Below the pieces are notes generated by a model. It saw only the letters and a list, made by a program, of their open reading frames with translations. It did not search any database and was not told the origin of the DNA. From an uncultured Gemmatimonadaceae bacterium (GTDB taxonomy: Bacteria; Gemmatimonadota; Gemmatimonadetes; Gemmatimonadales; Gemmatimonadaceae), in NCBI GenBank assembly GCA_963716745.1, contig OY970320.1, positions 1,856,001-1,920,000 on the forward strand: DNA of 64,000 bases, given 5' to 3'. The translations under genes and the position numbers were made by a program. Numbering within the stretch: the first letter of the stretch is position 1; each line of letters begins with the position of its first letter. This document shows positions 10,055-21,298 of the stretch, one piece after another.

Positions 10055-10583
10055 ATGATGAGAATGGATCCTCATCGTACTGGGCGTTCTCGTCTTCGTC
10101 GCGGCGATCGGCTACACCGCGGGCGCGCGCTTGCCGCTGGCTCACTCGGCGTCGGTGCGCGCCCGCTTTGCGGTTCCCCCCGAATCGCTCTACGCCGCGA
10201 TCGTCAATGTCGACGCGTACCCGAAATGGCGCGCCGACGTGAAGAGTGTTACTCGGCTGCCGGATCACAACGGCCACACCGCGTGGAGCGAAACGACGAG
10301 CTCGGGCTCGCTCGCCTACGAGGCCACGCTCGCGGTCCCGCCGAATCGCGTCGTGAACACCATCACGACCAGGGACGCCGGATTCACCGGGCGCTGGATC
10401 TTCCAGATCCTGCCCGACAGCACCGGGAGCACGCTCACGATCACCGAAGAGGGCGCGATCGAGCAGCCGCTCTTCCGCTTCATGCAGCGCTACGTGTTCG
10501 GCATGACGGCATCAATGGAGACATTCCTGCACGCGCTCGGAGGCCGCTTCGGCGAGAGAGTCGCCGTCACGCCGCTGCACTAG
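10055..10583 (+). CDS. SRPBCC/START-like (polyketide cyclase family) protein with N-terminal membrane anchor; one apparent +1 indel near 10063
   Basis: PPESLYAAIVNVDAYPKWRADV...FTGRWIFQI...TLTITEEG; removing one A gives MMRWILIVLGVLVF in frame. Confidence 0.75.
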
Positions 10584-11446
10584 CTGGCGTCCAGCCACTC
10601 TCCGGCGAGCGCCGCGACTCGCGCGCGTTGATAGTCCGCCGCAATGACGTGGCCGGTCCCATCGAGCCACTCGATCCTCTTCTCTTGGGCGCCGAGCATC
10701 GCGAACGCGTGTTCGGCCACAGCCGGCGCGATCCGGTTGTCCTCGCGCGCTTGCACGTACAGCGTCGGCGGCCGCACGGATGGGAGCGCGGCGCGTCCGC
10801 GATCGGCGCACCGAATGAGCTCCGCGGTGAGCCTCGGACTCGTTGCGCCGAAGGCCAGCGAATGGGCGCGCGCATCCGGATCATGGATGGAGCGGTCGTC
10901 CGAGGTGACGACGTAGGGCATCACCGCCTGGAGTACGGGCTCGAGCGGCATCATGCGTCGCACTGATCGCGGTACATCGAAGTACGGAACAAGAAGCACG
11001 AGCGCACGCACGTCGGAGGACTCTTTCGTGAGCAGCGTCGCGAGCACCCCACCAAGCGATTGCCCCACGATCGAGACGCTCGTGCACTTCGCGCGTAGCT
11101 CGTCGAGAGCCGCGCGTGCGCTGGTAAGCCATTGCTCCGCATCACTCTTCGCGAACTCGCGCAGGGTTCGTCCGTGGCCGGCGAGCAACGGCGCGTATAC
11201 AGCGTATCCGCGTGTCTTCAGCGATTGCGCCAGCATCGCCACGCTCTGTGGCGTGTCGCCGAAGCCGTGCAGGATGAGCACGCCCCGGCCGCCGCGGCCC
11301 AGGACGATCGGTTCCGCGCCTTGGATGATCCCATCGGGGCCGACCGGGAGGCGCCGCCGCGACCCGCGCTCGACCATCGACGGATACCCCGCTGCCAGTG
11401 CGCCGAACGCGCTCGCCGCCGCGAGGATCGTGGTGAGGTCACTCAA
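10580..11446 (-). CDS. Alpha/beta hydrolase (carboxylesterase / monoacylglycerol lipase type)
   Basis: LILHGFG, GQSLGG nucleophile elbow, D and GH triad positions; TTG start overlapping the upstream stop. Confidence 0.85.
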   Translation of the reverse strand: MSDLTTILAAASAFGALAAGYPSMVERGSRRRLPVGPDGIIQGAEPIVLGRGGRGVLILHGFGDTPQSVAMLAQSLKTRGYAVYAPLLAGHGRTLREFAKSDAEQWLTSARAALDELRAKCTSVSIVGQSLGGVLATLLTKESSDVRALVLLVPYFDVPRSVRRMMPLEPVLQAVMPYVVTSDDRSIHDPDARAHSLAFGATSPRLTAELIRCADRGRAALPSVRPPTLYVQAREDNRIAPAVAEHAFAMLGAQEKRIEWLDGTGHVIAADYQRARVAALAGEWLDAS

Positions 11447-12621
11447 TAGCGCGGCACCGAAGGATCGATCTCGTCGCTCCACCGGCGGATGCCGCCGGCC
11501 AGATTGCGAACGCGCGCGAATCCGGCCGCACGCAACTGCTCCACCGCCTTCGCACTGCGTGCGCCGGACTTGCAGTACACGACGATGTCGGCCGTGCGAT
11601 CGAGCGATCCCATCGCCGCCTCGAGCGTGCCGAGCGGAATGAGCCGCGCGCCTTCGATGCGCGCGAGCTCCCATTCGCGCGGCTCGCGCACATCGATCAG
11701 CACGGGTCGGGTGCCTCCGGCGATCCGGTCCGCGAGCTCGCGCGGTGTGATCTCCATCGCGGCGTCCGGCGGCGCGATGCCGCAGAAGGCTTCGTAGTCG
11801 ATGAGCGTCTTCAGCGTGCGAGTGCCGCACGCCGGACAGGCCGGATCGCGTTCGAAACGCAGCATGCGGAATTGCATGCGCAGCGCATCCACGAGCAGCA
11901 GCCGGCCCACGAGCGGATCACCCGCACCGAGGATGAGCTTCAGCGTCTCAGTCGCCTGGATCACACCCACGAGACCTGGGAGCACCCCGAGAACGCCGCC
12001 CTCGTCGCAACCCGGCACGGAACCGGGGGGCGGCGGATCGGGAAAGAGACATCGATAGCACGGACCACCCGGTGCGCCGAACACGCTCGCCTGTCCATCG
12101 AAGCGGAACACGCTGCCGTGCACGTTCAGGCGGCCGGCGAGCACGCTCGCGTCATTGACGAGATAACGCGTGGGGAAATTGTCGCTCCCGTCCACGACGA
12201 GATCGTAGCGCGCCACGAGATCGAGCGCGTTCTCCGAAGTGAGCCGCACCGCATGCGCTTCGACGGTCACGTTCGGGTTCAGCGCTGCGATCGTCTCGCG
12301 GGCCGAGTCGATCTTCGAGCGGCCAATGTCCGCGGTGCCGTGCAGCACTTGGCGGTGGAGATTCGTCAGATCTACCGTATCGAACTCCACGAGCCCGAGC
12401 GTACCTACGCCGGCGGCGGCGAGATAGAGCGCGGCGGGTGAGCCCAGGCCGCCGGCGCCGATGAGCAACACGCGCGCCGCCTTGAGACGCCGCTGTCCGT
12501 CCGCGCCCACCTGCGGAAGCAACAGGTGGCGGCTGTATCGCAGCGTCTCCTCGGCCGTGAGTTCGGGCAGCGCGGCGAGGCGGCGTTCCATCGGGTTGGC
12601 GATCGATCCGGCCGGGCTCAT
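11443..12621 (-). CDS. moeB: MoeB/MoeZ-type sulfur-carrier adenylyltransferase with C-terminal rhodanese domain
   Basis: RYSRHLLL, IGAGGLGSP, NLHRQ, CYRC and CPAC Zn motifs, DVREPREW...YCKSGARS; start 12621 or 12591. Confidence 0.92.
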   Translation of the reverse strand: MSPAGSIANPMERRLAALPELTAEETLRYSRHLLLPQVGADGQRRLKAARVLLIGAGGLGSPAALYLAAAGVGTLGLVEFDTVDLTNLHRQVLHGTADIGRSKIDSARETIAALNPNVTVEAHAVRLTSENALDLVARYDLVVDGSDNFPTRYLVNDASVLAGRLNVHGSVFRFDGQASVFGAPGGPCYRCLFPDPPPPGSVPGCDEGGVLGVLPGLVGVIQATETLKLILGAGDPLVGRLLLVDALRMQFRMLRFERDPACPACGTRTLKTLIDYEAFCGIAPPDAAMEITPRELADRIAGGTRPVLIDVREPREWELARIEGARLIPLGTLEAAMGSLDRTADIVVYCKSGARSAKAVEQLRAAGFARVRNLAGGIRRWSDEIDPSVPRY

Positions 12622-12646: not shown

Positions 12647-13597
12647 TCACCCCGGCCATTGCCGCGCGGACTCCACCACCGATTGCACTTCGTAGCCGCG
12701 CACGCGCCGGCCGGTGTGGAAGGTCTCCGCCGCGATCCCCTTCTCCTGCCACGCGGTCGCCATCGCCGCCTCCACCGCCGCGGCGTCGTCGGTCCGCGCG
12801 ATCGCGACGAGCGCGGAGCCCGAGCCGCTCAACGTCGCGCCGAACGCGCCGGCGGCCGTCGCGGCGGCGTTCACCGCGTCGTACCCGCGCACGAGCGCGC
12901 GGCGGTGCGGCACGTGCAGCACATCGTCGAGCGCGATGGCGAGGAGCGCCGGCTCCGCGGTCGCGAGTCCGCGCACGAGCGCCGCGCTCCGCGCGGCCGC
13001 CTGCACCGCCGTCACGTGCGGCACGACGTTCGGGAGCGCGGCGCGTGCGCGTTTGGTCTCGACGGTGAAGTCCGGCACCGCGAAGATGAACACGAGCGAT
13101 GGATGCACCTCCAGCGGCGTCACTACGAATGGCTCGCCCGCGAGCGCGAGCACCGCACCGCCGTACACCGACGGCGCCACGTTGTCGGGGTGTCCGTCGA
13201 GCGTCGCGCAGATGCCGGCGAGTGAACGCGCATCCAATCGCAGTGCGAGCATCGCATTGGCGAGGGTGGCGCCCGCCACCAGCGCCGCCGCGGAAGAACC
13301 GATCCCGCGTTCCACCGGGATCTCGGAGGTCCCCTCGAACACGAGGCCGGATGGGACGGGCGTTCCCGCCGCGGTGCACGCGGCGCGGAAACCGGTGAAC
13401 ACGAGATCGCGCTCGGGGCGCACCGCCGACAGCACCTCGAGCGTGCCGTGCCGCACCATGCGCGGCGTGGAATTCCCCAATGCATCGCGGCGCACGGTCA
13501 CCGTCAGCCAGCGGTCGACCGCCATCCCGACGCAGTCGAACCCCGCACCCAGGTTCGACGTCGAGCCCGGGACTTTCACCACGACCGACTCGATCAC
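12647..13597 (-). CDS. thrB: Homoserine kinase (GHMP family)
   Basis: VPGSTSNLGAGFDCVG, PVERGIGSSAAA, GHPDNVAP, LSGSGS. Confidence 0.92.
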   Translation of the reverse strand: MIESVVVKVPGSTSNLGAGFDCVGMAVDRWLTVTVRRDALGNSTPRMVRHGTLEVLSAVRPERDLVFTGFRAACTAAGTPVPSGLVFEGTSEIPVERGIGSSAAALVAGATLANAMLALRLDARSLAGICATLDGHPDNVAPSVYGGAVLALAGEPFVVTPLEVHPSLVFIFAVPDFTVETKRARAALPNVVPHVTAVQAAARSAALVRGLATAEPALLAIALDDVLHVPHRRALVRGYDAVNAAATAAGAFGATLSGSGSALVAIARTDDAAAVEAAMATAWQEKGIAAETFHTGRRVRGYEVQSVVESARQWPG

Positions 13598-13746
13598 AGC
13601 ACCCGCTCCGTTGGGGAACCGGCTGGCCGCCGGCCCATGACGATAGCGCCGGCGAGCGGCCGAAGGGAAGACGTCGCGACTGCCGCTGGCATCGCGACCC
13701 CGGATGTGCCAATTTTCGCTGTGCCCCTGCGGACCACCAACCACTA

Positions 13747-15054
13747 ATGCCGCGCGGCGCCCCTCAGTCGCAGACGGTACCGTCCGTCATCATCCTCGGC
13801 GCCGACGCCGTCTTCGCCGCTCTTCCCGCCACTCCGGTCCAGCTCGCGCACGCGTGTCAGCGTCTCGGGTATGCCTCGGCGTTCCCCGCGAGCTGGGGCG
13901 ACGAGCTCGTCGCCGGCGCATGTCTGAGCGAGCTCGCCGACCGCAACGCGGACCCGGCGATCCTCTGTTCGTGCCCGCTCGTGCGCGAGCGTTTGCTGCG
14001 GGCCGGCGACGATCTCGCCCCCTGGATGATCTCGCTCGTCGCGCCGCCCGTCGCGGTCGCGCGATATCTGCGGTCGGCGTACGGCGCGCGGATGCTGCAC
14101 ATCACGTATGCCGGCTCGTGCCCCGGCGCGGGCGATGCGTCGATCGATGAACGGATCTCCCCGGCGGACTTGTTGGCGCTGTGCCGCGAGCGCGGTGTGA
14201 GTCCCGCGGCGCAGCCGCAGTTCTTCGAGAGCATCCTGCCGCCCGATCGCCGCCGCTCGCTCTCGATGCCCGGTGGATCGCCGAGCGATGAGGCGCTGCG
14301 CGATCGCGCGGGCGGCCGCGTGCTCGCTGAACTCTCCGCTGACGATCCGATGGCGGAGCTCGCCGACCGCATGATGTCGCGCGCGCAGTTGCTCGTCGAT
14401 CTCGCGCCGCACGTCGGCTGCGCGTGCAGCGGCGTCGGTGCGGCGGTGGGCGGCCGTGACGAACGCCGTCAGTTGATCGTGCTCGAACCGCCGCGTTCGC
14501 GCGATCCGGTGGTCGATCTCACCGTTGATCTCGATCTGCTCGTGCCGGTGCCGCGGGAGTCGCCGCCCCCGGTGCCGCGCGCCGCGCGCGGCGTCGCGAG
14601 CGTGGAGATGCCGCCGCGGCTCCGTCGAGTCGCGAGCATTCCCACTCCGCCCTTCTTGGCGGCGCTGCCGGATCTCGGCCACGCGATCATCCGCGAGTAT
14701 CCGCACGGCGACACGCCGCGCCGCACCGTGATCGTATTGCGCCGCCGCGGTGCGAGCGAGACGCCGGCCGCTTCGTTGGCGGGAGTCAGCATGCCGCGCG
14801 CCTATCTCGGGAAGCGCCCGAAGCCGCAACCTGTGCGACGCCCAGTGCGCGTGCTTCCGGGCGACGGTCGCAATTCGCAGTCCGATCGCGAGCGTCCGAT
14901 GGATCGCTCGGACGATCTCGCCGATGGCCCGAGGCTTCGCACGTCGCCGGGAGAAGGGATCTTCTCGATCGTCGCGGATCCTCGCGATCCGCTCCCGCCT
15001 GCGCCATCCAAGCGCCGGCCGGGCGGCCCGATCGACAGCGGCGCCAGCATCTAG
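13747..15054 (+). CDS. [FeFe]-hydrogenase large-subunit-like (Nar1-like) domain protein with Pro/Arg-rich tail
   Basis: Motifs ILCSCP, YAGSCP and VDLAPHVGCAC in the order and spacing of H-cluster motifs L1/L2/L3; low-complexity C-terminal half. Confidence 0.6.
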   Translation: MPRGAPQSQTVPSVIILGADAVFAALPATPVQLAHACQRLGYASAFPASWGDELVAGACLSELADRNADPAILCSCPLVRERLLRAGDDLAPWMISLVAPPVAVARYLRSAYGARMLHITYAGSCPGAGDASIDERISPADLLALCRERGVSPAAQPQFFESILPPDRRRSLSMPGGSPSDEALRDRAGGRVLAELSADDPMAELADRMMSRAQLLVDLAPHVGCACSGVGAAVGGRDERRQLIVLEPPRSRDPVVDLTVDLDLLVPVPRESPPPVPRAARGVASVEMPPRLRRVASIPTPPFLAALPDLGHAIIREYPHGDTPRRTVIVLRRRGASETPAASLAGVSMPRAYLGKRPKPQPVRRPVRVLPGDGRNSQSDRERPMDRSDDLADGPRLRTSPGEGIFSIVADPRDPLPPAPSKRRPGGPIDSGASI

Positions 15055-15065
15055 CGACGCGCGCG

Positions 15066-15095
15066 CCGGGTGGAGCGCCGAAGCGCTCCACCCGG
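15066..15095. terminator. Stem-loop between convergent genes
   Basis: 13-bp perfect stem ccgggtggagcgc-cgaa-gcgctccacccgg followed by ttctcttattt. Confidence 0.7.
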
Positions 15096-15100
15096 TTCTC

Positions 15101-17209
15101 TTATTTCAATGCCGCGGTCGCCTCGTTCACCGCCTGCGCGGCCGCATCGAAGCGCGACGCGAGATCGGCGATCTCCCGCATCGTGAGCGCCTTGTCGCCA
15201 GTGCGCATCGCTTCGCCCACTGAGGGGAAGACCATGTCGGCGTATCCGTTGTCCTCGTCCGCAGCATAGATGAGGTTGCGGAACCATGGACGCGTGCGAA
15301 GACCTTCGGGCCGCAGCAGGGCACGCTCGACTCTCATGAGCGCCGCATTCGTCTTGGCGGCCATCTCCTTGGACACGGGACCGCGCGCCAGCTGCCCATC
15401 CCGGGCCGCCGCGAACGCTGTTGCCGCCGCGCCGAGCCGCGCGATCAATGCACTGAGCGCGGTGTCGCCCTGGTACCAGCCCTTCTTCTTCAGGGCGCTG
15501 TCCATGGGCGGCAGGTATTTCTTCATCGTGCTCGCGTACTCCTGGTAGTCGTACGGCAGGATCTCCGCGTTCGCGAGCCGCCACATCATCATCGCGCCGA
15601 CCTTGGCCGCCGCGGCGTGGTACTGGTACGACGTGTCCCCGAACGTCGCCATCCAGTGGTACGAGTCGTATAGCGAGTGATACACGCCGCCCGCGCCGCC
15701 GAATCCCCACTCCGCCATCGGGACACCGATGTGATTGTAGAATCCGGCGTAATCCGATCCGCCGCCCGGATCGCCCATCGGCGGCTGCGCGCTGTCCGCG
15801 ACGCGCGCCTGCTTGCGCCACACTTCGTAGACCGTGCCTTTCCCGCTCGGGTCCTGGATGTGCGCCATCACATCGCGGATCATCGGACGCAGCGATGGCG
15901 ACCCGCCGCCGCCGATGCGCGGGCCGGACGCCGGAGAGTCCTGATTGAGATACGCGATGCCGCCGCGGATCAGCCGGAGTGAATCCTCCTCGACGTATTC
16001 CGTGGAACCGAGCAGCCCCCACTCTTCAGCGTCCCAGGTCGCGAAGATCATCGTGCGCTTCGGCTTCCGCCCGGCTTTCACTTCCGCCATCACAGCGCGT
16101 GCCGACTCCAGCACGCTCACCGTGCCGCTCACGTTGTCGTTCGCGCCAGGACCCCACGCATCGCGGTGCCCGCCGACCATCACGATCTGGTCGGGCAACT
16201 CCGTGCCGCGCACGATGCCGAACGTGTCCCAGATCTTCTTATACGCCGCCGTCGCGCTGTCCGAGTGCACGATCATGTGCGCGGCCACGGGGCCGGGGCC
16301 GGCGTGATAACGGAACGCCAGGCCGCCCTGCCAGCCCTGAGGAATGCTCGCACCTTTGAGTCCGCGCAGCAGCTGCGTCGCGTTTCCATAGGACATCGGG
16401 ATCACGGGGATGTGCGGCACCGCCATCTTGTCGAGCGCGATGCGCTGTGCGCCGGCCTTGCTTGCGTAGCCCGGCGTGCTCGGATCGCCGTCATCGTTCA
16501 TCACACTGCCGCGCTGCACGCCCTGCGACGGCCGCATCGGTCCCGCGGGATACACATCGCCGCGCGCGAAGCCATCGTCGGCCGGATCGCTGTAGATGAT
16601 GAGCCCGAGCGCGCCGCGTTTCTCGGCCTCGCGCGCCTTGATGCCGCGATAGGAACGGCCGTAGCGCGCGATCGCGATCTTCCCCTTCACCGACACGCCC
16701 ATCGAATCGAGCTGCGCGTAGTCCTCGATGAGCCCGTAGTTCACGTACACGACCTGCCCGCTCACGTCGCCCGTGCCGCTGTATCCGTTCGCGATCACCG
16801 CTTCCGTCTCGTTCCACGACGTCGTGTCCTGCGGCACCGGACCTTCGGCGAGGTTCAGCGCGACCGTATCGGGCGAGATGCGCCACACCTGGATCGTCGT
16901 GGTGTGCGGCATCCACACCACGTACTCGCGCACTTCCGTCTCCATGCCCCACGATTTCATGGCGGCGATCACATAGTCGCGCGTCCACGCCTGCGCCGGC
17001 GTGCCGGCGATGTGTATCTGATGGGACAACGCGCGCGATTCCGCGCGAGCGGTGTCGGCCGACATGCGCGCCGCGGTGTTCGCCTCGAGCGTGCGCTCCG
17101 ACGCGGATGCGGCGGCGCCGTAGCCAGGCAGCGACGGTTCTTGCGCAGAGATGGCGAACGCCGGCAGCAGGAGGGCGAACGCGGCGACACGAACGGAATC
17201 TCGGATCAT
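15101..17209 (-). CDS. M28 glutamate carboxypeptidase II / transferrin-receptor-like peptidase, secreted
   Basis: PA domain (YVNYG, ARYG, YSDP), GGHRDAW, DNVSG, WDAEEWGLLGS, YHSLYD, TfR dimer-like C-terminus. Confidence 0.9.
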   Translation of the reverse strand: MIRDSVRVAAFALLLPAFAISAQEPSLPGYGAAASASERTLEANTAARMSADTARAESRALSHQIHIAGTPAQAWTRDYVIAAMKSWGMETEVREYVVWMPHTTTIQVWRISPDTVALNLAEGPVPQDTTSWNETEAVIANGYSGTGDVSGQVVYVNYGLIEDYAQLDSMGVSVKGKIAIARYGRSYRGIKAREAEKRGALGLIIYSDPADDGFARGDVYPAGPMRPSQGVQRGSVMNDDGDPSTPGYASKAGAQRIALDKMAVPHIPVIPMSYGNATQLLRGLKGASIPQGWQGGLAFRYHAGPGPVAAHMIVHSDSATAAYKKIWDTFGIVRGTELPDQIVMVGGHRDAWGPGANDNVSGTVSVLESARAVMAEVKAGRKPKRTMIFATWDAEEWGLLGSTEYVEEDSLRLIRGGIAYLNQDSPASGPRIGGGGSPSLRPMIRDVMAHIQDPSGKGTVYEVWRKQARVADSAQPPMGDPGGGSDYAGFYNHIGVPMAEWGFGGAGGVYHSLYDSYHWMATFGDTSYQYHAAAAKVGAMMMWRLANAEILPYDYQEYASTMKKYLPPMDSALKKKGWYQGDTALSALIARLGAAATAFAAARDGQLARGPVSKEMAAKTNAALMRVERALLRPEGLRTRPWFRNLIYAADEDNGYADMVFPSVGEAMRTGDKALTMREIADLASRFDAAAQAVNEATAALK

Positions 17210-17255
17210 TCGACGGGGGGCTGGAAGTGTGTCGTGCAGGAGGATCGCGATCGGT

Positions 17256-17876
17256 TCACTTGTCATCATACTCGAGCAGCAGCGCCTGGAGTGCCGCGCG
17301 AAGGCGGTTCTCGCGCTCGGGCCCTTCAGGAATGCCCGCCGCGATGAGGGAGAATTGCTCCACCATCTCGCGTTCCACGAAGCGCGCGGTGTCCTGCGCG
17401 CCGAGATGTTCGAGCGCGCGCTGCGCCACGCGTCGTAGCAGCGCGCGGGTGGACGGATCGAGCGCGCGCAGGTTCTCTGGATCCGCCGCCGGTGGTGGGA
17501 GCTCGGGCTCGCGACGGCGCCGCCCGGCCTCTCGCAGCGCGCTGAGCGGCGCCGGCGTGACCACGAAGGAACCGGGCGTATGCTCCTTCACCGCGGAGAT
17601 CACGCCGCGGCGGCGCAGCGACGCGAACAGTCGCACGACCGCCTCGCGCACCACCGCGATGCCGCCGTCGCTCTGGTTGCCGCGACCTGTGATGATGAGG
17701 AGCTCGCCGGCGCGGCTCGCCTGGCGCTCGCGGATCCACGACTCGGCGCGCCCGACCGCTTCGCGCGCGGTCGGGAGCGTGTTCCGCAGATTGAGCGTCT
17801 TCGCCGGGCCGAATCGCGCCTCGTCGAACGCGCTGTGCAGCGCTTGTGGGCCGGAGATGCGCGCCACGATCATCAC
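17256..17876 (-). CDS. Stand-alone Smr-domain protein with C-terminal helical extension
   Basis: TLNLR...AREAV...LLIITGRGNQS.GG...GSFVV. Confidence 0.7.
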   Translation of the reverse strand: MMIVARISGPQALHSAFDEARFGPAKTLNLRNTLPTAREAVGRAESWIRERQASRAGELLIITGRGNQSDGGIAVVREAVVRLFASLRRRGVISAVKEHTPGSFVVTPAPLSALREAGRRRREPELPPPAADPENLRALDPSTRALLRRVAQRALEHLGAQDTARFVEREMVEQFSLIAAGIPEGPERENRLRAALQALLLEYDDK

Positions 17877-17880
17877 GCCA

Positions 17881-19479
17881 TCACTTCAGCGCGTTCCAGA
17901 GGATCGTCCCGTCGACATGTTCGGTCGGCAACGTCGCGGTCACCCACGCCAGCGTCGGCGCCAGGTCCTCGGCGAGCACCGGCATCGTGTAGCGGCCGGC
18001 CTTGAACGGCGCACCCCACATCACGACCGGTACGTTGTTGTCGTAGTCGTAGGGCGAACCGTGAATGCCCGGCGCGTAGGTGCCCCACACCGAGAACTCC
18101 TTGAGCGTCACCACCAATTCCACCGGGAAATCGGCCGGTAAGGTGTGGTACCACCGACGAGCGATCGGATCCTTCAACGTGTCCTTCGCGAGATCGGCCA
18201 CGCGCATCACGCTCGCCACACCGGGCGTCGCCCGCACTTGCGCGGCGAACGCGTTCACGAGCGAATCCACGTTCACGTGCGCGCGGAGGAGCGGCTCACG
18301 ATTCACGAACAGCATCGCATCCTCGAACCAGAAGTCGGTCGAGTCACCGCCCAGCGCAGACACCGCCGCCTGGAATCGCTGCCCGATCGCGGCGAGGTTG
18401 AGCCGCTGCGCCGGCTTGTGCGTCCGGGCCGCGTACTCCTCGGGGAGCGGGGCGACGCCGTGGTCGGCAATGAGCGAGATGACGACGTGCGTCGAATCGC
18501 GCACCGCGAACACCGAATCGAAGAACGCGCCGAGTTCACGGTCGAGCCGAAGGATCTGGTCGTGCATCTCCCGCGAATCGGGGCCGTAGCGGTGACCGAT
18601 CGCGTCCGTCGTGGAAAGTGAGATCGCCAGCACATCGGTGGCGTCGCCCGCGCCAATGTTCATCGCTTTCATTCCGGCGAGCGCCACCTGCAGCGTCACC
18701 GCGTCCATGAACGGCGAATCCGCGAAGCTTCGCAGCGCCGTGGCCGTGTCCTTCGAGAGCGGGTGCGGGAACATGAAATCGGTTCCGAAGTTCTCCCACA
18801 CCACGCTGTCCTTCTCGGGATAGGCGCTGTCGGGCAGCAGCAGCGTCCACACGCTGCCGGCGTAGCTCGCGGGGATGCGTCTCGCATTGAACGTTCGGAT
18901 CCAGGTTGGCAGCGTGTCGGCGTAGTACGTGCTCGTCGAGAAGTTGCCGCTCGCCGGATCGTACCAGAACGCGCTCTGGTGCGTGCGGCCCAGCGGGAAG
19001 ATCGCGCCGCGATCCTTCCGCGAGACCGAGAGCGCGCGCGTCCGCGGGTCCTTGATCCGGAGCCACTCGGTGAGTCCGCCGCCGCGGAACCGGAACGGCG
19101 ATGCGAACATGGTGGTGCTTCCGATCACGGGCGCCTGGGGATCGAACGCACCCAGTGAGTTGCTCACGATGCCCGTGCTGCGCGGGAATCGCCCCGACAT
19201 CCCCACCGAGTGCCCGGGCGCGGTCTCGGTCGCTTCGTAGTCGAGCATCGCGTTCGTGAAGAACGCGCCGTTCTTCGCGAGACGGCCGAGCCCGCCGGTC
19301 AACTGCGGCCCGAAGCGCGTCAGATAGTCGGCGCGCATCTGGTCCACGGTGAGGAAGATCACGAGCGTCGGCACCTGCTTCTTCGGCGGCAGCGGGCGCG
19401 CCGCGGGGTGCGCGGCGGCCTGCGCCGCGAGCGACGCAGCGCCAGTGAGGCTGAGCAAGGCGATCGAGAGACGGCGCAT
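17881..19479 (-). CDS. Alkaline phosphatase superfamily (PafA/NPP type), secreted
   Basis: VDQMRADYL, TETAPGH, SRKDRGA, TDAIGHRYGP, ADHG, IHGSPYDYD. Confidence 0.9.
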   Translation of the reverse strand: MRRLSIALLSLTGAASLAAQAAAHPAARPLPPKKQVPTLVIFLTVDQMRADYLTRFGPQLTGGLGRLAKNGAFFTNAMLDYEATETAPGHSVGMSGRFPRSTGIVSNSLGAFDPQAPVIGSTTMFASPFRFRGGGLTEWLRIKDPRTRALSVSRKDRGAIFPLGRTHQSAFWYDPASGNFSTSTYYADTLPTWIRTFNARRIPASYAGSVWTLLLPDSAYPEKDSVVWENFGTDFMFPHPLSKDTATALRSFADSPFMDAVTLQVALAGMKAMNIGAGDATDVLAISLSTTDAIGHRYGPDSREMHDQILRLDRELGAFFDSVFAVRDSTHVVISLIADHGVAPLPEEYAARTHKPAQRLNLAAIGQRFQAAVSALGGDSTDFWFEDAMLFVNREPLLRAHVNVDSLVNAFAAQVRATPGVASVMRVADLAKDTLKDPIARRWYHTLPADFPVELVVTLKEFSVWGTYAPGIHGSPYDYDNNVPVVMWGAPFKAGRYTMPVLAEDLAPTLAWVTATLPTEHVDGTILWNALK

Positions 19480-19514
19480 GGGAATATCCGGAAGAAGTCG
19501 CTGTGTCATTCGCA

Positions 19515-21298
19515 TCATTTCGGGAGCAACTCGGCGCGCCCGTACAGCGCGCCGCCCTTCATCACCATCACGACCAGCTTCGCGTTGCCGATGTCCGCGG
19601 TGGGATCGGCCGACCAGACTACGAGGTCCGCGGCGCGTTTCGCATCGAGCAGGCCGAGCTCGCTGTCGCGCCCCATCGCCCGCGCCGCGACGATCGTCGC
19701 CGATGCGAACACCTCCGCCGCCGGCATTCCCGCCGCCTGCAATGCTTCCATCTCACGATACACGCTGGGACCGGGCGCGGTGCCGGGGTTCCCGGCATCC
19801 GTGCCCATCGCGATCGGTATGCCGGCAGTACGCATGCGTGCCACGTTCCGTTCGGTGGCGTGGAACGCGCTGTCGAAGCGGCCCGTCGCTTTCATGCGAG
19901 CCAGCCGTGCGGCGCGCAACGAATCTGGCAGTGGCGTCTCGAGATGCGCGCGCGTTACGGCGTCGACGCACGCCAGCGGGTAGCGCGCTGCCGGCGACCG
20001 GCCGGCGTACACGTCCGCATACCCTTCGAAGACCGTGAGCGTCGGGATCACGATCGTGCCGTTCGCCTTCGCGAGCGCCAGGAACTCGTCGTCAATGTCC
20101 TCCGGCGCCACGCTGTGCACGAGCACTCTCACGCCGGCATGGAGCGCGTCCTTCGCATTCGCGAGCTGCGTGGCATGCACGAGCAATGGCAGCCCGGCGC
20201 GCTTCGCTTCTTCGCCGGCGACCATCAGCCGCGCGCGCATCACCGCTCTCTGCGAGTCGGGGACCTGGAGATACCACACCTTGATCGCACTCGCGCCATC
20301 GCGCGCGAGCGCGCGCACGCCCGCGCGCACCGCCGAATCGCTGCTCATGTAAATGAACTGCTTCTCCACCGCCGTGTTCACCCACGAGTCGTACGTCGTG
20401 AGCAGCGGACCGGCGGCCGACATCCGCGGAGCGTTCAATGCGGATTCATGATCGCGCGCCATCGTCAGCGTCCACGGATAGCCGCCGACATCGAACACGC
20501 TCGTCACGCCGCTGCAGAGGTACGCGCGATCGAACTTCGACGGATCGTGATGGAGCGCCGCGACCACGGAGTCGTACGGGAACTGCGAGCGCAGGTCGAG
20601 CGCGTCGGGACGGCCGTCCACCCACCCCGTTTGTGAATAGTGCACGTGCGCGTCGATCAATCCCGGGCCGATATACTTTCCGCGCACATCGATCGTCTCC
20701 ACTCCCGCTGGAACGGGGCAGTCCGCACGCGCGCCTGCGCACACGATGCGCCCGCCCGCGCACGACCACCGTCGCGTTCGGCACCGCAGGCCGGCGCGGA
20801 TTCACGAGCGTTGCGCCCACCAGCGCGACCGGCGGCGGCAATGCACCGGCTGACAGTCCGAATGCCGTGCTCACCGCGATCTTCCAGCCTTTCGGCGGTC
20901 TTCACGAAGATGCGCTCCGAGATCCCTTCGATCGTCGGGCCGTTGTGCACTACCTGGCGGTAGTGGTACGTGCCGTAGACCACGCCCGGTGCGATCGGCA
21001 CCATGCGCAGATCGCGTGCGACCAGCGTGTCGGGCCACGTGTTGTCGCGGATCGCCGCCCAATCCTTGTATCCCTGCTCGAGCCCGCCCGTGCCGTTGCG
21101 CGCGAGCGTCTCGGTCTCGATGTAGTAGGACAGATATCGCGTGCGGTCGCGTTTGTGGATCGCGTCGATGTTCGCTTCGAACACTTTTCTCGCGCCCGCC
21201 GTGTCCGATTCGGCTTGGCCGGCGGCAACGGAGGACGAGACGAGCATCGCAGCGACGACCAACGCGGCGCCGGCGAGCGGCGCGCGGGAACGGCTCAT
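19515..21298 (-). CDS. Secreted amidohydrolase with N-terminal NTF2/SnoaL-like domain; two apparent indels (~20893, ~20757)
   Basis: Three ORF pieces join into signal peptide + NTF2-like domain + ALVGATLV...PGLIDAHVH...AIKVW...VHA...LVHS...GTDAG...KRAADLVV. Confidence 0.75.

Follow-up and report, generated by a model that had tools for sequence, protein, structure and literature searches.

Putative sensory [FeFe]-hydrogenases of the M2e and M2f types (groups D and C) contain two N-terminal clusters, a hydrogenase catalytic domain (H-domain) and a Cx2Cx4Cx16C motif, as outlined in sections of PMC8163306 and PMC13104023. The HydS proteins (TmHydS, TamHydS) carry a genuine H-cluster and are active on H2. 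In eukaryotes, the H-domain protein Nar1/CIAO3 (also IOP1 or NARFL) works in the pathway for iron-sulfur assembly in the cytosol (CIA); it has neither a diiron subsite nor hydrogenase activity, and its iron-sulfur (Fe-S) clusters are labile to O2 (account in PMC12621388). In Clostridiales, Fer4, Fe_hyd_lg_C and FeS are presented in part of PMC6615313 as regulatory domains of sigma54 activators. A stretch of 64,000 nucleotides from an uncultured Gemmatimonadaceae bacterium (GenBank assembly GCA_963716745.1, contig OY970320.1, positions 1,856,001 to 1,920,000; hereafter the window) encodes a stand-alone hydrogenase-like protein of 435 residues, referred to here as the window protein. It retains the H-domain fold in its predicted structure together with a conserved set of cysteines, and has lost the catalytic features of a hydrogenase.

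The window protein shares two characters with the sensory group C and D hydrogenases (M2f and M2e): the H-domain fold, and non-conservation of the proton-relay cysteine (C299 in CpI numbering) as reported in the relevant passage of PMC8163306. The layout of these hydrogenases (two N-terminal [4Fe-4S] motifs, H-domain, C-terminal Cx2Cx4Cx16C) is shared by its nearest relatives; both the N-terminal Fer4 domains and the Cx2Cx4Cx16C motif are absent from the window protein itself, and hhalign found no relation between its tail motif and the Cx2Cx4Cx16C region. In contrast to HydS proteins, it has no F-domain, C-terminal cluster, PAS domain or L2 lysine, lacks one canonical L3 cysteine and is encoded in a genome where maturases were not found.

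The nearest relatives are Gemmatimonadales proteins named 'diguanylate cyclase' in databases (Fer4, PF02906, PF04060 and GGDEF; uncharacterised beyond those names), called the sister clade below. They are 31-38% identical to the window protein over the H-like domain and have in common with it the blocks P.TP.Q...C, WGDE/GDEL, PPVA.ARYL, RRR..S..GG and EPPR. Sister-clade proteins carry accessory clusters and a GGDEF output and mostly lack the L1 and L3 cysteines; the window protein is the reverse on each point. The Clostridiales sigma54 enhancer-binding proteins have, going by the part of PMC6615313 that describes them, the same domain types in their input region as the sister clade. The output is an AAA+ sigma54 activator in Clostridiales and GGDEF in the sister clade, whereas no output is fused to the window protein.

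A preliminary description of the window, made from the letters alone, had called the product a degenerate [FeFe]-hydrogenase-fold protein without an N-terminal ferredoxin domain. Both statements are borne out by structure prediction and domain searches. An AlphaFold2 model built on 120 homologues has predicted local distance difference test (pLDDT) scores, taken in ten-residue blocks, that are mostly >90 over residues 11-230 and 71-93 over residues 231-270. Among the matches listed by Foldseek, every entry from rank 1 to rank 49 is an [FeFe]-hydrogenase, with E 7e-9 at best. VIA-align superposes the model on CpI and TmHydA with Z 18.6; the root-mean-square deviation is 3.3-4.4 A, with 258-266 residues aligned. 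The part of CpI matched by model residues 4-275 is 215-574, and 74 chains are matched at Z of at least 8. On this model, residues 5-270 are a compact [FeFe]-hydrogenase H-domain, about 95 residues shorter than that of CpI. There is no Fer4 match in Pfam, and the fold begins at residue 5. Translation also places the segments LAHACQRLGY (residues 33-42), ILCSCPLV (72-79), DLAPWMISLVAPPVAVARYLR (89-109), YAGSCPGA (121-128) and LVDLAPHVGCACSG (216-229) where they had been described.

Sequence profiles give a fainter picture. The Pfam model PF02906 (Fe_hyd_lg_C) matches only residues 27-115 of the window protein (score 20.7 bits, just under the cut-off of 22.1; E 3.7e-4). The HMMER check proposed in the preliminary description is borderline; the structural comparison with CpI proposed alongside it is positive. 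A six-frame search of the genome gives a score of 21.8 bits, which becomes 22.3 when neighbours in frame are included. In a scan of 20 relatives drawn from the 120 members, 12 pass the cut-off and 16 match at E <= 0.01. The NCBIfam model TIGR04105 is marginal on the window protein (E 0.11). Solved hydrogenase structures were found neither by phmmer with the window protein nor by a 120-sequence profile; a sister-clade profile does reach them (HydA2 7qv7_D, E 5.8e-4; CrHydA1, E ~3e-3).

This profile allowed the active site to be mapped in two steps: sister-clade H-like domains were aligned with solved hydrogenases, and a 105-sequence alignment then connected them to the window protein. 'STDP' aligns with 'SCCP' (L1) and 'GVC' with 'MPC' (L2); the L3 alignment is a weak second stretch, 'ILSa.EGa' on 'VMTCpEGC'. 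In catalytic [FeFe]-hydrogenases, L1 is TSCCP and holds both the ligand and the proton-relay cysteine, L2 is MPCxxKxxE, whose lysine anchors the diiron subsite, and L3 has two cysteines in CxxxC spacing. L1 of the window protein reads CSCP, in which the ligand cysteine is kept and the relay position is Ser75 (S, A, V or T in relatives). At L2, the lysine position is occupied by A or G in nearly all proteins of the window type. L3 reads GCACSG; its first cysteine position is H222, which varies among relatives (H/R/S), and its two cysteines are C225-x-C227.

The genes for the maturases HydE, HydF and HydG were not found above cut-off in the genome (3.29 Mb, one contig, estimated completeness 89.8%), which extends to the whole genome an absence previously described for the window. 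None of the 71 family genomes searched, among them the unpublished G321, has a HydG match above cut-off (best score 22.5 bits; cut-off 312). Because the L2 lysine is absent (Ala128), the relay cysteine is replaced by serine, L3 is rearranged and maturases were not found, the protein is judged from its sequence to be a non-hydrogenase whose diiron machinery has gone, in agreement with the preliminary description.

A genuine H2-sensing or H2-converting hydrogenase, supplied with an H-cluster by some unknown route, would have the same fold, and active [FeFe]-hydrogenases are reported in a passage of PMC11216029 from archaea without the three conventional maturases. This explanation is nevertheless exceedingly improbable: the L2 lysine, relay cysteine and first L3 cysteine are all missing, the domain is shortened, maturases were not found and the protein lacks accessory clusters through which electrons could be transferred. 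The host also appears to be aerobic, as had been supposed, since a haem-copper oxidase subunit I (COX1) is found in the genome (537 bits); no [NiFe] large-subunit hydrogenase was matched there.

Conservation of the cysteines, which the preliminary description had named as a check, is complete at five positions: C37, C76, C125, C225 and C227 are each present in 121/121 sequences of the alignment of relatives, C74 in 118/121 and C59 in 104/121. Alignment places C76, C125 and C225 at canonical ligand positions of the [4Fe-4S]H cluster. Five invariant cysteines, three of them at such positions, suggest that a [4Fe-4S] cluster is probably bound. In the PPDRRRSLSMPGGSP block (residues 165-179), the residues that do not vary across 120 sequences are P165, D167, R168, R169, R170, S173, G176, G177 and P179; the R-R-R...S..GG core is also kept in the sister clade. 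H35, W50-G51-D52-E53, P100-P101 and P248-P249-R250 are likewise invariant.

The same cysteines could serve a thiol or zinc switch without Fe-S, in which C74-x-C76, C225-x-C227, C125 and C37 would bind Zn or form reversible disulfides. Their CxC...CxC arrangement differs from the CxxxC spacing of hydrogenases, five to six conserved cysteines are above the need of a cubane, C37 and C125 are retained in relatives without the other cysteines, and the host is aerobic. However, three cysteines are homologous in position to the [4Fe-4S]H ligands, the sister clade includes an intermediate with all four canonical cysteines, and other Fe-S domains occur in relatives; a switch of this type is unlikely.

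The gene is under selection. Nonsynonymous to synonymous rate ratios (dN/dS) were calculated by the Nei-Gojobori method against the orthologue from the same genus (G327), which is 86% identical and starts at the same methionine (dS ~0.66). The ratio is 0.143 for the whole gene, 0.048 for residues 1-270 and 0.31 for the tail, within which residues 325-360 stand at 0.105 and the last 40 residues at 0.39. By these comparisons the gene is real and constrained, and the domain is under strong purifying selection.

Proteins related to the window protein are numerous. Among 8000 scored candidates, 940 match at E <= 1e-3; an exhaustive library clustered at 50% identity yields 457 matching clusters, with E <= 1e-30 for 293. 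A search of the ESM Atlas gave only clusters of the window protein's own kind, from Gemmatimonadota, with PF02906 on 28-80% of members. A homologue is present in 144/301 genomes of the phylum (including the unpublished genome G057). The distribution differs between families: 22/69 genomes in the window organism's own family, 112/125 in a second family, also of this order, 7/23 in a third and 0/47 in a fourth.

Proteins of the second family are the sister clade. They are ~560-600 residues long and contain two Fer4 motifs, PF02906 (E 2.3e-11, profile 8-235 of 245), PF04060 'FeS' and GGDEF (E 5e-42); they also match TIGR04105, the monomeric [FeFe] hydrogenase model, at E 3e-24, far below its cut-off. 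Cx2Cx4Cx16C is found in 118/120 close relatives and GG[DE]EF in 116/120. The L1 site reads 'TD' in 110/120, and no cysteine was seen at L3. A minority (L033, L034, L037, L038 and L052) keeps all four canonical cysteines (positions 76, 125, 222 and 225; STCP, GVC, CEGC), while L035, L036, L039, L049-L051 and L053-L059 mostly have no cysteine at L1 or L3 (STDP, SHEGW). Equivalents of C37 and C125 are kept in most of these cysteine-poor proteins; C125 is lost in L053, L058 and L059. In a FastTree tree of 105 H-like domains, a branch with SH-like support of 100 separates proteins of the window type (Cys 76, 125, 225 and 227) from the rest; this tree has no root, and the direction of change is not readable from it. 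The window protein is in a Gemmatimonadota clade that is sister to the GGDEF-fused proteins.

The absence of H-domain cysteines from most GGDEF-fused relatives fits a cofactor-free pseudo-enzyme that acts as a structural interaction platform, possibly one that is decaying in this genus after loss of a membrane anchor and of a Crp neighbour (see below). In-frame stops in one relative point the same way: the match in L026 (G114:C5:409636-410712, minus strand) contains one in-frame TGA and one in-frame TAG, and this orthologue is probably a pseudogene. A cofactor-free platform is still quite unlikely, as the cysteines are invariant in the window type and the within-genus dN/dS of the domain speaks against decay.

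The H-domain site of Nar1 has the standard four cysteines. The window protein differs from Nar1 in being bacterial, in its rearranged L3 (CxC), in its long motif-bearing tail and in its signalling-type relatives. Nar1 has an extra N-terminal cluster site; no such four-cysteine site is present in the window protein, which has no N-terminal extension and whose first cysteine, C37, is inside the fold. The Nar1 analogy drawn in the preliminary description holds at the functional level only: since the nearest relatives have the sensory C/D layout and are fused to GGDEF, a sensor is favoured over a cluster scaffold.

The scaffold alternative is that the protein is an Fe-S carrier, a bacterial functional analogue of Nar1/CIAO3 that would pass a labile cluster at the H-domain site to client proteins. 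It shares with Nar1 the fold and the loss of the diiron site, and Nar1 is treated as a proposed trafficking factor with O2-labile clusters in a portion of PMC12621388. The flexible tail could recruit clients; partner binding by Nar1 through a bipartite interface is reported in PMC13451876. Without the N-terminal cluster site of Nar1, with no Fe-S assembly genes identified among the neighbours examined and with GGDEF-fused signalling proteins as closest relatives, a carrier is decidedly unlikely; its patchy occurrence in its own family (22/69) is also a better fit to an accessory regulator than to a core assembly factor.

The tail was previously described as long and disordered. Its pLDDT is indeed mostly <50, except at residues 341-355 (~85), but it holds a pair of conserved motif blocks, and in about half of the relatives this region includes a putative membrane tether. 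It contains no cysteine. Within block 1 (residues 322-358) an xP[RK]A[aromatic/aliphatic] motif is found in 194/245 tails, and conservation reaches 90% or more at P340, G346, P350, R351 and A352. The proposal that this PRAY motif is a vestige of Cx2Cx4Cx16C ('CRAC' compared with 'PRAY') was rejected (hhalign probability 0.1). Block 2 (residues 390-426) has the consensus DLADG...R.R.P....I.I...P..P.PPP..KR.PG across orthologues.

In untruncated orthologues (62-72% identity), block 2 runs directly into a C-terminal hydrophobic helix, which is missing in the window protein. A transmembrane (TM)-like segment is found in the tail of 137/262 relatives, and its frequency varies with length: 24/25 at 700 residues or more, 70/80 at 560-700 and 21/107 at 400-480. 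PF02906 was the only domain seen in 20 proteins of 422-885 residues. The window protein, a relative that is 97% identical to it and the same-genus orthologue all end a few residues past KR(R/K).G, without the helix. On this comparison the TM anchor is lost in the genus.

A regulatory gene accompanies many orthologues. In other genomes of the same family, a Crp/FNR-family gene is located directly upstream, in divergent orientation, in 13/22 best-hit loci (L012-L024). The encoded proteins consist of cNMP_binding and HTH_Crp_2 domains; no N-terminal cysteine cluster is present in the three sequences inspected. In these loci an alpha/beta hydrolase gene lies beyond the Crp gene, and M28 peptidase, Smr and phosphodiesterase genes lie downstream. 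The hydrolase, M28, Smr and phosphodiesterase genes all recur in the window, with thrB and moeB-rhodanese in the place of the Crp gene; thrB is also adjacent in one other genome (L011). No Crp gene was found in the genome at E <= 1e-5 by tblastn with the Crp proteins of two neighbours.

The evidence leans, if modestly, towards a non-catalytic H-domain relic that acts as an Fe-S-based sensor or regulatory module for redox state, O2 or Fe-S status. A cysteine-lined site would remain in the position normally taken by the H-cluster's [4Fe-4S] part, the requirements of the diiron subsite having been lost. C76, C125 and C225 would act as ligands, with a fourth from C227 or C74, and what is bound would be a simple Fe-S cluster reactive to solvent or O2. 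The state of this cluster, set by O2, oxidants or Fe-S supply, may be relayed to partners through the conserved short motifs of the flexible tail. In relatives, the same domain would be hard-wired to synthesis of cyclic diguanylate (c-di-GMP) by GGDEF fusion; in others it would be tethered to the membrane beside a Crp/FNR-type regulator without a cysteine cluster.

Several observations weigh against such a sensor. The window protein is below the PF02906 cut-off. The first L3 ligand position is not cysteine in its clade, and the CxC spacing at L3 is unusual for a [4Fe-4S] cluster. Because most sister-clade proteins have lost the H-domain cysteines, the fold can seemingly be kept without a cluster; retention of C37 and C125 in the cysteine-poor relatives hints that these two may have a role other than as ligands. 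The anchor is absent in this genus and the adjacent Crp gene was not found with the queries used, so that the proposed output route is only putative here. The neighbours in the window (thrB, moeB, M28 peptidase) are silent on signalling.

A more specific version of the sensor is speculative and rather doubtful, but can be outlined. The protein would represent an undescribed class of bacterial Fe-S sensor that arose from a sensory hydrogenase in aerobic Gemmatimonadota, a relic with a CxC...CxC site that is either membrane-held or soluble. Its tail motifs, the PRAY block in particular, would capture or release a cysteine-less Crp/FNR-type regulator or c-di-GMP enzymes, depending on whether the cluster has been destroyed by O2 or oxidants. 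Such an 'anti-regulator' built from a hydrogenase would be a parallel to Nar1.

The features of the locus are collected in Table 1. A start at 13480, which would give a longer open reading frame (ORF), was ruled out, as homologues and the same-genus orthologue begin at the methionine of 13747. The gene is taken to be monocistronic because a terminator-like hairpin is located past its stop codon and the next gene is convergent. No sigma70-like promoter site was found by a promoter scan of 13400-15300. None of 20 listed sequencing runs is an RNA run that contains the locus; all are soil or rhizosphere DNA, with word shares <=0.45.

Table 1. Coordinates of the hydrogenase-like gene, its parts and its neighbours (positions in the window)
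Feature	Position	Strand	Basis or remark
CDS, hydrogenase-like protein, 435 aa, monocistronic	13747..15054	+	start: homologues aligning from residue 1 and same-genus orthologue
Compact H-domain-like fold, residues 5-270	13759..14556	+	pLDDT, Foldseek, VIA-align, dN/dS
L1-equivalent ILCSCPLV	13960..13983	+	C76 at ligand Cys position, S75 at proton-relay Cys position, C74 extra
L2-equivalent YAGSCPGA	14107..14130	+	C125 at L2 Cys position; Lys position is Ala128
Invariant PPDRRRSLSMPGGSP block, residues 165-179	14239..14283	+	conservation in 120 sequences
L3-equivalent LVDLAPHVGCACSG	14392..14433	+	C225 at second L3 Cys position; C227 new; weakly aligned stretch
Pro/Ala/Arg-rich tail, residues 271-435	14557..15051	+	mostly low confidence; dN/dS
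Tail block 1, RRR..PA....G..(V/I/M)PRAY..(K/R)R, residues 322-358	14710..14820	+	predicted hairpin and short helix; dN/dS (residues 325-360)
Tail block 2, pre-anchor, DLADG..R.R.SP....I...P..P.PP.P.KR.PG, residues 390-426	14914..15024	+	orthologue alignment
GC-rich hairpin and T-run, terminator-like, between convergent genes	15065..15096	+	1 found; shuffles mean 0.5
thrB (homoserine kinase), divergent	12647..13744	-	TIGR00191 192.6 bits against 168.25, aligned from ORF residue 54
MoeB/MoeZ-type adenylyltransferase with rhodanese domain	11443..12621	-	domain matches
M28/PA/TFR_dimer peptidase, convergent, syntenic in relatives	15101..17269	-	domain and synteny

Divergent transcription from thrB and the MoeB-rhodanese gene, as first described, is supported by the TIGR00191 match of thrB. 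The thrB ORF as listed begins 2 nt from the ATG of the hydrogenase-like gene; since the match to the thrB model does not begin until ORF residue 54, translation probably starts near 13585, which would leave a divergent intergenic region of ~160 bp. An alpha/beta-hydrolase ORF (10580-11830, minus strand), as listed, shares ~390 nt with the 3' end of moeB. Its Pfam domain begins at residue 184, so that the gene probably starts far later than listed; it is also syntenic with orthologues in other genomes. On the other side, 15101-19518 (minus strand) is a run of genes for the M28/PA/TFR_dimer peptidase, an Smr-domain protein and a type I phosphodiesterase/nucleotide pyrophosphatase. The peptidase and Smr genes were found again beside orthologues in several genera, and the phosphodiesterase was confirmed in one relative (L042). 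There is no evident functional link between these genes and the hydrogenase-like protein.

The genome has a second protein of this kind outside the window, a paralogue of 638 residues (G000:C1:2962009-2963925, equivalent to L040:7004-8920, plus strand). It is 47% identical over residues 3-268 and keeps all cysteine motifs and the PRAY block. Its C-terminal part is rich in Pro and Ala, and it contains a TM helix at an internal position. Its gene is followed by those for a SoxE/sulfocyanin-like cupredoxin (165 residues) and a multi-TM GGDEF protein (419 residues).

Loci of the second family have the order sigma54 activator, Fer4-H-like-FeS-GGDEF gene, a 249-residue protein and an HD_5/MASE9 (HD-GYP-type) protein; the 249-residue protein has no Pfam or NCBIfam match. 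This apparent operon is common to the second-family loci examined (L051:3633-9437, with equivalents in L049-L059), and a ~1100-residue BTAD/AAA_16/TPR protein is encoded convergently to it. The operon has the appearance of a full c-di-GMP module that is provided with an Fe-S input.

Parts of this picture are already known, namely the domain assignment in database names and the existence of non-catalytic hydrogenase-like proteins (Nar1, HydS-type sensors). The stand-alone form with a rearranged site and a tail tether, its placement as sister to GGDEF-fused pseudo-hydrogenases and its conserved pairing with Crp appear to be new. Full-text literature searches found no paper on the family of the window protein, for which only domain-level database names exist.

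The family is common in Gemmatimonadota, and PF02906-matching proteins of this kind may be counted as [FeFe]-hydrogenases in metagenome surveys of the phylum, which would overstate H2 metabolism. One survey notes 'few [FeFe] hydrogenases' in marine Gemmatimonadota (in a part of PMC11316326), a count that could include such proteins. The family also provides a natural series for the H-domain scaffold without its diiron site, from four canonical cysteines through the rearranged CxC to no cysteines. If the proposed role is correct, the window protein and its relatives would join eukaryotic Nar1 as a second, independent example in which an [FeFe]-hydrogenase core is kept after the loss of H2 chemistry; this case would be found in aerobic soil bacteria and tied to signalling through c-di-GMP and Crp/FNR.

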